Origin: Sphingomonadales bacterium
GTDB taxonomy: Bacteria > Pseudomonadota > Alphaproteobacteria > Sphingomonadales > Sphingomonadaceae
DNA: 30,293 nt
Assembly: GCA_038326295.1 (NCBI GenBank)
Contig: JBBQJX010000001.1
Span: 1-30,293 of the forward strand
Reading direction: 5' to 3'
The notes under the pieces are model-generated. The model was not told the DNA's origin and searched no databases. It worked only from the letters and a program-made list of their open reading frames with translations. The translations under genes were made by a program, and so were the position numbers. This document shows, one piece after another, positions 13,015-15,793 of this stretch; the stretch's first letter is position 1; the number at the start of each line of letters is the position of its first letter.

Positions 13015-13260
13015 ATGCCCGATCGCGCCAAGATTCTAGCCCGCATCCTCGAGTTCATCGCGCCCCTGAACAAGGCGGGCGTGGCGGTGGGCGAAACCAC
13101 GCGCTTCGCCGACGACCTGATGTTCGATAGTCTGACCGTCATGGATCTGGTCGCCGGCATCGAGGATGAGTGGAACATCGTGCTGCCGCTGAACGCGCTG
13201 CCCGAACTCGAGACGGTGGGGCAGCTGACCGATGCGGTAACGAGGCTGACCAACAAATGA
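13015..13260 (+). CDS. Specialised acyl carrier protein coupled to SPT
   Basis: FDSL phosphopantetheine-attachment motif; ATGA overlap with spt. Confidence 0.9.
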   Translation: MPDRAKILARILEFIAPLNKAGVAVGETTRFADDLMFDSLTVMDLVAGIEDEWNIVLPLNALPELETVGQLTDAVTRLTNK

Positions 13261-14489
13261 CCGATTTGATGAGCAAGTTCGATGCGCTGATCGCCGAGCG
13301 CGCGTCGCTGGGCCATGCCGGCATCCGCGATCCCTTCTCGATCATCATGAGCGAGGTGCGGTCGCCGACGCAGGCCGTGATCGACGGGCGCGAGACGATC
13401 CTGGTCGGCACCTATAATTACATGGGCATGACGTTCGATGCGGACGTGATGCGCGCGGGCCAGGAGGCGATCGCCAAGTTCGGCGCGGGCACGACGGGCA
13501 GCCGCGTGCTGAACGGCACCTATCAGGGTCACGCCGAATGCGAGGCGGCGTTGCGCGATTTCTATGACATGGCGGGCGCGATCGTGTTCAGCACGGGGTA
13601 CCAGGCCAATCTGGGCGTCATCTCGGCGCTCGCGGTGCGCGGCGAATATGTGATCCTCGATGCGGACAGTCACGCATCGATCTACGATGGCTGCTCGATG
13701 GGCACGGCGGACACGATCCGTTTCAAACACAATAGCCCCGAAGACATGGCGAAGCGGCTGGGCCGCCTGCCTGCGGATGCGGGCAAGCTGGTGGTGCTGG
13801 AGGGCGTCTATTCGATGCTGGGCGATATCGGTCGGCTGAGGGAGATGGTCCCGGCTGCCAAGGAAGCTGGCGCGATGGTGCTGGTGGACGAGGCGCACGC
13901 GATGGGCTTTTACGGGCCCAACGGGCGCGGCGTTTACGAGGAGCAGGGGGTCGCCGACAGCATCGATTTCGTCGTCGGCACCTTCTCCAAAAGCGTCGGC
14001 ACTGTGGGCGGCTTCTGCGTTTCCGATCATCCCAAGCTCGACGTTCTGCGGCTGGTCTCGCGGCCCTACGTGTTCACCGCCTCGCTGCCGCCTACTGTGG
14101 TCGCGATGGCGGAAGCCTCGATCCGCAAGCTCATGCACGCGGCCCCCAAGCGCGCCCGGCTGTGGGAGAACACCCGCGCGCTGCACGGGGGGCTGAAGGC
14201 GCTGGGCTTCGATATCGCCACCGACAAGCCCGAAAGCGCGATCATCGCGGTGCTGATGCCCGATCAGGTGACGACCGCGCGCATGTGGGCAACGCTGCTC
14301 GAGATGGGCGTCTATGTGAATATGGCGCGGCCCCCCGCCACGCCTGCGGGCATGTTCCTGCTGCGCTGCTCGCTCTGCGCCGAGCACACGCCCGGCCAGA
14401 TCGCCACCGTGCTTGGCGCGTTCGAGGTGGCCGCCGCGAAGGTGGGGCTGCCCCTGACCGAAAGTATACGCACGCTCCAGGCCGCCTGA
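13257..14489 (+). CDS. spt: Serine palmitoyltransferase (PLP-dependent alpha-oxoamine synthase)
   Basis: GTYNYMG, GSRVLNGT, HASIYDG, DEAH and GTFSKS (PLP lysine) motifs; adjacent ACP. Confidence 0.9.
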   Translation: MTDLMSKFDALIAERASLGHAGIRDPFSIIMSEVRSPTQAVIDGRETILVGTYNYMGMTFDADVMRAGQEAIAKFGAGTTGSRVLNGTYQGHAECEAALRDFYDMAGAIVFSTGYQANLGVISALAVRGEYVILDADSHASIYDGCSMGTADTIRFKHNSPEDMAKRLGRLPADAGKLVVLEGVYSMLGDIGRLREMVPAAKEAGAMVLVDEAHAMGFYGPNGRGVYEEQGVADSIDFVVGTFSKSVGTVGGFCVSDHPKLDVLRLVSRPYVFTASLPPTVVAMAEASIRKLMHAAPKRARLWENTRALHGGLKALGFDIATDKPESAIIAVLMPDQVTTARMWATLLEMGVYVNMARPPATPAGMFLLRCSLCAEHTPGQIATVLGAFEVAAAKVGLPLTESIRTLQAA

Positions 14490-14509
14490 CCGCCGCACCA
14501 CCGGCGGTC
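14488..14509 (+). terminator. GC-rich hairpin between spt and the tRNA (weak U-tract)
   Basis: GACCGCCG-caccac-CGGCGGTC followed by only TT. Confidence 0.4.
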
Positions 14510-14514
14510 TTCGG

Positions 14515-14607
14515 CCGCCGGTAGCTCAACTGGCAGAGCGGTGGACTTATACTCCATGACCCCCGGATCAGGGGACGATGCGGGTTCGAACCCTGCCCGG
14601 CGGACCA
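14515..14607 (+). tRNA. Atypical tRNA with UAU anticodon (nominally Ile, AUA) and long variable arm
   Basis: CCGCCGG TA GCTC AACTGGCA GAGC G GTGGA CT TAT AC TCCAT [GACCCCCGGATCAGGGGACGAT] GCGGG TTCGAAC CCTGC CCGGCGG A CCA. All four stems pair; G18G19, TTCGA and an encoded CCA are present. Confidence 0.9.
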
Positions 14608-14611
14608 TCTT

Positions 14612-15793
14612 TCAGGCCATTACCGCGCTCGGCGCTCGCGTGGATCGTGAGCGCGACCTCGCCGTCAGGCCGAACAGCGGCCGGAACATCCCGGCGCGCT
14701 CCCCCACCCAGGCGAAAGCGAGGCAGCCGAGCACCGTCACCGACAACAGCACCGCGAACTCGCCCGCCGCGCCCAGCGCGAACGGCTTCACCCAATGTTC
14801 GACAACGATGATGATCGTCTGATGCGCGATGTAGAAGGGGAAGACCGCGCGCGTCAGCCAGCGGCGCGCGGCGCTGTCGCGCTGGAGGTGCGCGGTGGCG
14901 AGGCCGATCAGCCCCAGGATCGTCGCCCACACATCCACCGCGCGCGCGGCCTGTGCGCACAGCGTGATCCACTCGGGCGCGTCGGGGTCGCCGTCGGGGA
15001 AGGACAGGTTGTACGCCATGCGCGCGCCATAGGCGGCGAGCGCGGCAAGCAGGAGCGGCCGCCATGCCGCCGCCGCGCGTGCGAGCAGCGCGGGCGATCG
15101 CGCGAGCCCCATGCCGAACAGGAACAGCGGCAAATAGGCGGCGTGCGCGTACGGATCGTCCAGCAGCCCATGCGTCTCGCCGAAGCGCGGATAGAGCCAG
15201 ACGCGCGTGGCGAATTCCCACGCAAGCGGGAGCGCGTACAGCCGCCAGCCGCCGAACAGTCGGTCGAACACCGCCTGTCCGCGCCGGCCAAGCGCCCACG
15301 CCAGGGCTGCGGCGACCAGCGTATAGACCCAGAGATAGACGACGAACCACAGGTGGTTCCACGTCGGCAGGATGAAGCCCGACTTGTACGCGGCGAAGCT
15401 GGAGCCGAAGACGAAATAGTCGCGCGTCCAGAAGTGCGCGAAGCTTGCGGTGTAGCCCGCTTTCTCGGTCAGCTCGACCCAGGGCTGCGGCGCGACCCAG
15501 AGCGCCATACCGGCGGCGAGCGGGATCAACAGCCTTGCCGAGCGCGAGGCCACAAACGCGCCCGGCGATCGCAGCTTGCCGAGCAGGTGGCGCGAGGCGA
15601 CGCCCGATATCAGGAACAGGAGGCCCAGCCGCCACGGGTTGAGCAGCAGCATCGGCCACTGCACCCAGTCCATCGGATGCGCGGTCTTGATGTGAAAGTC
15701 CCATGGCACGAAGACCATGCCGATATGATAGAATATGAGGAGCCCGAACGCCCCGATGCGAAGCCAATCGAGCCCGTAATGTCGCTGATCCAT
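14612..15793 (-). CDS. Acyltransferase-3 family membrane protein (OpgC/MdoC-like)
   Basis: RHYGLDWLRI....YH, WRLGLLFLISG, WNHLWFVVYL and FPFYIAHQTII motifs. Confidence 0.85.
   Translation of the reverse strand: MDQRHYGLDWLRIGAFGLLIFYHIGMVFVPWDFHIKTAHPMDWVQWPMLLLNPWRLGLLFLISGVASRHLLGKLRSPGAFVASRSARLLIPLAAGMALWVAPQPWVELTEKAGYTASFAHFWTRDYFVFGSSFAAYKSGFILPTWNHLWFVVYLWVYTLVAAALAWALGRRGQAVFDRLFGGWRLYALPLAWEFATRVWLYPRFGETHGLLDDPYAHAAYLPLFLFGMGLARSPALLARAAAAWRPLLLAALAAYGARMAYNLSFPDGDPDAPEWITLCAQAARAVDVWATILGLIGLATAHLQRDSAARRWLTRAVFPFYIAHQTIIIVVEHWVKPFALGAAGEFAVLLSVTVLGCLAFAWVGERAGMFRPLFGLTARSRSRSTRAPSAVMA

Follow-up and report, generated by a model that had tools for sequence, protein, structure and literature searches.

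A tRNA(UAU) gene between spt and a convergent acyltransferase gene

The window, meaning the whole stretch of 30,293 nt analyzed here, is the entire contig C1 of a Sphingomonadaceae MAG (G000; 2.19 Mb, 77% complete, 68% GC). It carries a tRNA gene that starts 25 nt past the stop of spt, which is itself preceded by an ACP gene (PF00550), and a membrane acyltransferase gene converges on it from the other side (Table 1). This location directly behind acp-spt had been proposed in the initial annotation and is confirmed by the NF047603 and PF00550 matches. ARAGORN called three tRNAs in the whole window, this one as a 93-nt tRNA-Ile(tat), and Rfam RF00005 matched positions 14515-14604 from end to end (56.6 bits, E 7e-10).

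Read from the sequence, the tRNA forms a 7/5 cloverleaf with a 7-bp acceptor stem (CCGCCGG/CCGGCGG, including the pairs C1:G72 and C4:G69), a 5-bp T stem and a U8-A9 linker. The D arm has a 4-bp stem (GCUC/GAGC, with U12:A23) and an 8-nt loop containing G18G19, while the anticodon stem GUGGA/UCCAU, with the pair G29:C41, closes the loop CU-UAU-AC, which has U33 and A37. The T arm, GCGGG-UUCGAAC-CCUGC, is followed by the acceptor 3′ strand, A73 and an encoded CCA. The five helices are free of mismatches, the bases that make tertiary contacts are kept (U8, A14, A15:U48, G18G19 and the T loop), and the GC content of 66% is like that of the host. Positions 14515-14607 are a real, well-formed tRNA gene.

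The UAU anticodon, 22-nt arm, C1:G72, A73 and CCA described in the initial annotation were all recovered by ARAGORN, Rfam or the sequence itself, and its further structural details (C4:G69, U12:A23, C38, G29:C41 and the CCCC/GGGG arm stem) can be read directly. Its description of the tRNA as class-II-shaped holds for the long variable arm and fails for the D arm, since a 4-bp Watson-Crick stem with an 8-nt loop is of class I type and unlike the D arms of the host Leu, Ser and Tyr tRNAs. A canonical class II tRNA (Leu, Ser or Tyr) was ruled out by this D arm, by the UAU anticodon and, for Ser, by the lack of G73. The combination of C1:G72 and A73 also occurs in tRNA-Pro, which was ruled out because the anticodon is UAU and not NGG and because the host's three tRNA-Pro genes are class I and dissimilar. 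An artefact of the MAG assembly as the source of the TAT anticodon was likewise rejected: the source sample, assembled separately, gave a Logan contig of 745 nt and depth 7 that agrees with 14353-15000 at every position.

Table 1. Features of the tRNA(UAU) locus in window coordinates.
Feature	Position	Strand	Evidence
Serine palmitoyltransferase (spt) gene, start approximate	13260..14489	+	NF047603, 700 bits (cut-off 670); PF00155
Leader, 25 nt; hairpin CCGCCG-CACCAC-CGGCGG duplicates both acceptor-stem strands of tRNA(UAU)	14490..14514	+	sequence; fold
tRNA(UAU) gene, 93 nt including CCA (14605-14607); A73 at 14604	14515..14607	+	ARAGORN; Rfam RF00005, 56.6 bits; model R1, 79.3 bits
Anticodon TAT, in the 7-nt loop CTTATAC (14546-14552)	14548..14550	+	sequence; ARAGORN; independent source-run contig
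Variable arm, 22 nt: GA + CCCC (14560-14563) + CGGAUCA (14564-14570) + GGGG (14571-14574) + ACGAU (U48 last)	14558..14579	+	sequence; layout equals that of 30 family members
GAU, variable-arm loop positions 3-5, where an anticodon would sit	14566..14568	+	AGAU invariant in 30/30 family members
Convergent Acyl_transf_3 membrane acyltransferase gene, stop 4 nt past tRNA(UAU)	14612..15793	-	PF01757; 393-aa product P0121

The leader hairpin is followed by TCTT, as is the tRNA itself, and it looks like a collapsed tandem copy. Alternative pairing of the leader hairpin with the 5′ acceptor strand of the tRNA is possible. In the predicted MFE fold of 14490-14607 (-55.4 kcal/mol, z -2.4), the tRNA 5′ strand lies in a 10-bp hairpin and the leader replaces it on the 3′ strand; by sequestering the 5′ acceptor strand in this way, the leader might hinder RNase P. 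A promoter and terminator scan found neither a sigma-70 promoter nor a terminator for the tRNA(UAU) locus, and the locus turned up in no RNA sequencing run. With no promoter found, transcription, if any, would probably proceed by read-through from acp-spt, followed by processing.

Extra-arm tRNA(UAU) genes in phage tRNA arrays

We scanned GTDB species genomes, JGI metagenome contigs and IMG/VR viral contigs for the anticodon loop and the T loop at the spacing they have in the window tRNA. The GTDB species genomes held no such tRNA apart from the window's own genome, which is possibly absent from the scanned set. Many matches were obtained on JGI metagenome and IMG/VR contigs, where ARAGORN called them as tRNA(tat) of 90-94 nt, and trimming left 30 distinct sequences (89-91 nt from position 1 to the discriminator). 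All 30 lie inside arrays of 2-10 tRNAs, on contigs that reach 300 kb and have 34-55% GC, with tRNA(CAU), Leu(UAA), Arg(UCU), Lys(UUU) and Glu(UUC) as their usual array neighbors and a virion protein and polynucleotide kinase near the arrays. Phage tRNA arrays include genes for A/U-ending codons, one example being the T4-type set with Ile, Leu-UAA and Arg-UCU.

Because the search pattern was taken from the window tRNA, it imposed the agreement in anticodon loop, arm length and T loop; it left the layout of the arm free. In an alignment of these sequences (A1), the variable region has the constant layout of 2 nt, 4 bp, a 7-nt loop, 4 bp and 5 nt, with U48 last. All five helices covary (99% of cells paired, two-sided changes in 19 of 25 pairs), the shuffle and slid controls coming nowhere close; in the variable-arm stem pairing is complete (100%), and three of the four pairs have changed on both sides. 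Beyond the search pattern, every member has A15, U48 and, in the arm loop, AGAU (30/30), whose GAU occupies loop positions 3-5; A73 is found in 29 of the 30. The first pair is weak, being G1.U72 in 23 members and A:U in five.

A covariance model built from the 30 members with the window tRNA left out (R1) gave the window tRNA 79.3 bits. Two of the training members scored 82-86 bits, and the best other host tRNAs reached 46.9 (Arg-UCU) and 42-43 bits (Tyr and Leu). The window tRNA has, besides this score, the UAU 7-nt loop, the 22-nt arm layout, the loop GAU, A15:U48 and A73. It departs from the family in having C1:G72 instead of a weak first pair, G in place of the invariant A before GAU, and a solitary chromosomal location outside any viral tRNA array. 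These results place the window tRNA, as judged from its sequence, within a mostly phage-borne family of extra-arm (GAU-loop) tRNA(UAU) genes. The identity elements that had been described as conflicting in the initial annotation lose their weight in this comparison, since C4:G69, U12:A23 and C1:G72 are not conserved in the wider family and are probably incidental.

A second scan, keyed on the D arm (GCUC-AAC(U)GGCA-GAGC), returned phage tRNA(UAU) genes that share this arm, most of them class I. It also returned one further extra-arm member (L474), which has A38 and lies in an array of at least 12 tRNAs, so the family is wider than the first pattern could see. Among ten distinct class I phage tRNA(UAU) genes that have GCUC-AACGGCA-GAGC as their D arm (L467-L478), six carry GAU as the middle three bases of the 5-nt variable loop, and GAU in the variable region may matter even where there is no arm. 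Arrays with extra-arm tRNA(UAU) also contain a class I tRNA(GAU) with the loop CCGAUUA, in which C33 and U37 are both unusual (L243:956-1029; L255:9228-9301, minus strand); this loop is near the arm-loop consensus CAGAUUA. A match to R1 of 65 bits in another genome of the same bacterial family (G055, L479:1501-1591) was rejected as a member, being that genome's only, ordinary tRNA-Leu(UAA). This tRNA has AGAU in its variable-arm loop, and its D loop, AACUGGCA, is identical to that of the window tRNA. There are hints here that the extra-arm family may have descended from tRNA-Leu(UAA).

We compared the window tRNA with the systems it most resembles. The phage array genes are alike in that family members stand beside tRNA(UAA), tRNA(UCU), tRNA(UUU) and tRNA(CAU), whereas the window copy is solitary, chromosomal and GC-rich and is flanked by housekeeping genes. 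In allo-tRNAs the 12-bp acceptor/T branch is split 8/4 or 9/3 and the body resembles that of tRNA-Sec/Ser; UAU is their commonest anticodon, and a role in translation was doubted (Mukai et al. 2017, Nucleic Acids Res 45:2776, PMC5389517). Allo-tRNA(UAU) shares with the window tRNA the long variable arm and the UAU anticodon, is found in metagenomes and soil bacteria, and has an unsettled function (PMC5389517). In contrast, the window tRNA has a plain 7/5 branch, U8-A9, a class I D arm and A73, and the 7/5 branch in place of 8/4 or 9/3 ruled out an allo-tRNA. Two class I bacterial tRNA-Ile(UAU), the tRNA-Ile2 of Mycoplasma mobile (PMC3575796) and a redundant tRNA of Lactobacillus plantarum (cited in PMC9976931), likewise read AUA through a UAU anticodon without lysidine, and in L. 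plantarum, as in the window host, the CAU/TilS system is present as well. Both differ in having a 4-5-nt variable loop and no extra arm, and M. mobile is without TilS. A TilS-independent system of the M. mobile type was ruled out for the window, since its host has TilS and its tRNA is not class I. The nematode nev-tRNA-Ile(UAU) (PMC3333845, PMC4300185) is similar in its variable arm, UAU anticodon and A73; it differs in being a eukaryotic tRNA-Leu derivative that is Leu-charged in vitro, with an unrelated sequence and no GAU-loop motif on record.

A full-text literature search turned up no account of a GAU-tipped arm on a 7/5 tRNA(UAU), and the combination looks like an undescribed tRNA design. 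This widespread design, joining a plain UAU for AUA to a constant GAU-tipped arm, would be a new solution to AUA decoding, and the window adds to it a rare chromosomal, GC-adapted copy. It is as a member of such a design, more than as a partner of sphingolipid genes, that the window tRNA is of interest.

Distribution of the tRNA among relatives

BLAST of the 93-mer against 40 relatives gave no match beyond a generic 39-nt tRNA match, and searches of plasmid and phage collections returned generic partial tRNA matches only. With up to three mismatches allowed, the 3′ 28-mer of the tRNA occurred only in G000 and G002 among 400 genomes of the bacterial family; as a degenerate pattern run against all GTDB species and JGI contigs, it matched in G002 only. 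Near-identical copies of the tRNA were confined to the source sample. In G002, which belongs to the same genus, a remnant lies directly behind spt (L004:2848-2903), with a similar leader before it. The D and T arms stand between the two strands of the acceptor stem, ACCA comes last, and nothing takes the place of the anticodon and variable arms. Its fold is no better than that of shuffled sequence, and ARAGORN and R1 both missed it. Its D-stem pair 13:22 has changed from C:G to U:A, a compensatory change. No integrase or phage genes adjoin the tRNA in the window or the remnant in G002, where the downstream genes include cmk and rpsA, and an integrated element using the tRNA as its att site is unsupported.

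G001 and the other close relatives examined have no tRNA behind spt (Spt homologues of 81-90% identity, P0001-P0008, at loci L098-L105 and L462-L466; acyltransferase homologue of 78%, L106). The stops of spt and of the convergent acyltransferase gene are ~24 nt apart in L099, L100, L103-105 and L106, compared to 122 nt in the window, indicating that leader and tRNA(UAU) together are an insertion of ~120 nt. The Spt tree contains a supported clade of eight, in which one member has the full copy (G000), one the truncated copy (G002) and six no tRNA; G000 and G002 are not sisters. No comparable tRNA was found at 80 spt loci and 80 acyltransferase loci elsewhere in Sphingomonadales. The DNA just 3′ of spt differs in almost every close relative, with ClpB, PriA, an acyltransferase, a low-GC gene or others at that place (L098-L105, L462-L466, L004, L005), and this change of genes from genome to genome marks the site as a rearrangement hot spot and synteny breakpoint.

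A syntenic homologue was found in a third organism, in a run from a different study (X4), on a contig of 2546 nt with a depth of 98. The contig carries in order the end of spt, 109 unaligned bases, a match to 14535-14607 and the end of the acyltransferase gene. The match is identical at 66 of 73 positions without gaps and spans the anticodon, variable and T arms; the one listed of its seven differences, 14565 G>C, lies beside GAU and does not alter it. Identity over these 73 nt is 90%, whereas the intergenic DNA on either side is not alignable at 82%.

The initial annotation had tied the tRNA to sphingolipid synthesis and asked whether its homologs stay next to spt. Most near relatives have none there, with the G002 remnant and the X4 homologue as exceptions, and the unconserved position, the insertion into a ~24-nt spacer, the six of eight clade members without the tRNA and the 160 negative loci (80 and 80) all speak against the link. 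The copy was inserted, two organisms have it intact, a third has it with an internal deletion and most relatives have none, the last of which suggests that selection on it is weak or absent. If its origin was a phage, as we infer, this history would illustrate the passage of such tRNAs from phages into cells and their later loss.

AUA decoding in the host and the probable role of the tRNA

Among sense codons, AUA alone normally requires an essential base modification before bacteria can read it, namely the lysidine that TilS makes. The host has TilS on contig C394 (PF01171, 158 bits; TIGR02432, 164 bits with a cut-off of 93.6) and two tRNA(CAU) genes, one of them of the elongator Met type. The second, on contig C295, has C4:G69 and C5:G68 and no initiator features, which makes it probably a tRNA-Ile2. 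AUA is used at 0.88 per 1000 codons and accounts for 1.9% of Ile codons (939 long ORFs). With TilS and a probable tRNA-Ile2(CAU) present, the TilS-independent AUA decoder suggested in the initial annotation is not needed; the best reading is that tRNA(UAU) would be dispensable in this host and redundant with the TilS/tRNA-Ile2(CAU) system.

We consider it fairly probable that the window tRNA is a captured AUA decoder of the mostly phage-borne extra-arm family, probably charged with isoleucine and unrelated to sphingolipid synthesis; that it stands behind genes of this pathway looks like chance. The tRNA and its short leader would have been acquired by the ancestor of a small Sphingomonadaceae group, presumably from a phage or another mobile tRNA array, as a ~120-nt insertion into a spacer of ~24 nt where spt and the acyltransferase gene converge. 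The tRNA would then have been lost by most relatives, or never present in them, with one relative keeping the truncated copy. If transcribed and processed, the tRNA would most likely carry isoleucine and supplement the decoding of AUA, which is rare (0.9 per 1000 codons), and we infer that it is expressed and that AUA is read as Ile. Isoleucine is favored by several observations. The identity of E. coli tRNA-Ile for IleRS depends on A35, U36 and A37 in the anticodon loop and on the discriminator A73, and the window tRNA has all four. Class I phage tRNA(UAU) genes share its D arm, and the array L255, which is ordered by amino acid, places tRNA(UAU) beside two tRNA(GAU) genes. AT-rich phages, moreover, could hardly afford mistranslation of AUA throughout. 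Leucine would be the main alternative charge, as LeuRS would be suited by A73, by A15:U48 and by the D loop, which recurs unchanged in a sphingomonad tRNA-Leu(UAA).

Less likely, though the strongest of the rival explanations, is that the tRNA is a neutral relic, acquired or duplicated once, unexpressed or unused, and decaying, so that its intact stems would reflect youth and not selection. The missing tRNA in six of eight clade members and the G002 remnant, which has lost the anticodon and variable arms and folds like shuffled sequence, are consistent with decay. The lack of a detectable promoter, a leader that competes with the acceptor stem, a host already equipped with TilS and tRNA-Ile2, and near-identical copies in the source sample only also point this way. 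However, a decaying gene would not be expected to keep five perfect helices together with U8, A14, A15:U48, G18G19, the T loop, GAU and an encoded CCA, nor would the X4 homologue be expected to hold 90% identity over 73 nt between stretches of intergenic DNA that do not align at 82%.

Ordinary IleRS enzymes handle U34 poorly. We regard as rather doubtful a more elaborate form of isoleucine decoding in which the GAU arm loop is a second anticodon-like module that copies the anticodon of the main isoleucine tRNA, tRNA-Ile(GAU), such that IleRS accepts the tRNA through it and UAU decodes, the sphingomonad lineage having domesticated a phage device. Were this so, what is loaded would be separated from what is read. 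Sterically, such a mechanism is hard to picture, since the point at which the variable arm emerges from the tRNA core is far from the anticodon-binding site of IleRS.

LeuRS does not read the anticodon, and a missense tRNA charged by LeuRS, through which AUA would be read partly as Leu, is improbable. It would have a precedent in the Leu-charged nematode nev-tRNA-Ile(UAU) (PMC3333845, PMC4300185), and A73, the A15:U48 Levitt pair and the D loop AACUGGCA shared with the G055 tRNA-Leu(UAA) agree with it. The D stem with its four Watson-Crick pairs is, however, unlike that of tRNA-Leu, an invariant GAU would be unnecessary for LeuRS, and the L255 array groups tRNA(UAU) with tRNA-Ile genes; AUA is a heavily used codon in the AT-rich phages bearing the family, and these would presumably be mistranslated throughout.

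With the arm hairpin removed, the window tRNA body is closest to the host tRNA-Arg(UCU) (59-62 identical positions, ~80%), followed by the tRNA(CAU) of C295, so that a local origin, or gene conversion of arms, is possible. It is nonetheless quite improbable that the gene arose wholly at home, as a duplicate of tRNA-Arg(UCU) in which C35 became A and a hairpin was gained, resembling the phage family by convergence. The T arm and anticodon stem are alike in the two tRNAs, UCU and UAU are one change apart, and the GC content of 66% is host-like; yet convergence would require a chance match to the 2+4+7+4+5 layout, to GAU at loop positions 3-5 and to U48 paired with A15, the R1 score lies 32 bits above that of tRNA-Arg(UCU), and the D arm is the same in phage tRNA(UAU) genes.

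A non-translational role tied to the neighbors (as a donor of aminoacyl groups in lipid modification, as a regulator, or in 3′ processing or stability of the acp-spt mRNA) is highly improbable, since the placement 25 nt behind spt on the same strand and beside a membrane acyltransferase gene, and the suspicion of Mukai et al. that allo-tRNA(UAU) is unused in translation (PMC5389517), are outweighed by a position that is not conserved, with no tRNA after spt at 80 other Sphingomonadales loci or in most near relatives, and by family members that lie in phage tRNA arrays and not by lipid genes. Missense and non-ribosomal roles for the window tRNA, both raised in the initial annotation, are possible, and nothing in the analysis points to them. 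The window also removes a false lead that was tempting, that of a tRNA dedicated to sphingolipid synthesis.

Three long tRNA calls that ARAGORN made elsewhere in the host genome, C255:1411-1503 (Arg-tcg), C278:1544-1629 (Pyl-cta) and C304:847-943 (Thr-tgt), have mismatched stems and no proper T loop and are probably false positives in GC-rich coding DNA. Two further kinds of unusual tRNA were seen in the phage arrays. Freshwater phage arrays (L232:2665-2737; L261:2742-2816, minus strand; and similar ones) contain a tRNA(UAA), nominally Leu, that is 73-75 nt long and without a long variable arm, next to a tRNA(UAU) that has one. The viral arrays at L442:3782-3875 and L450:2292-2385 (minus strand) carry a 94-nt tRNA(CUA) with a long variable arm and G73, a serine-type amber suppressor, which hints at TAG recoding in those phages.
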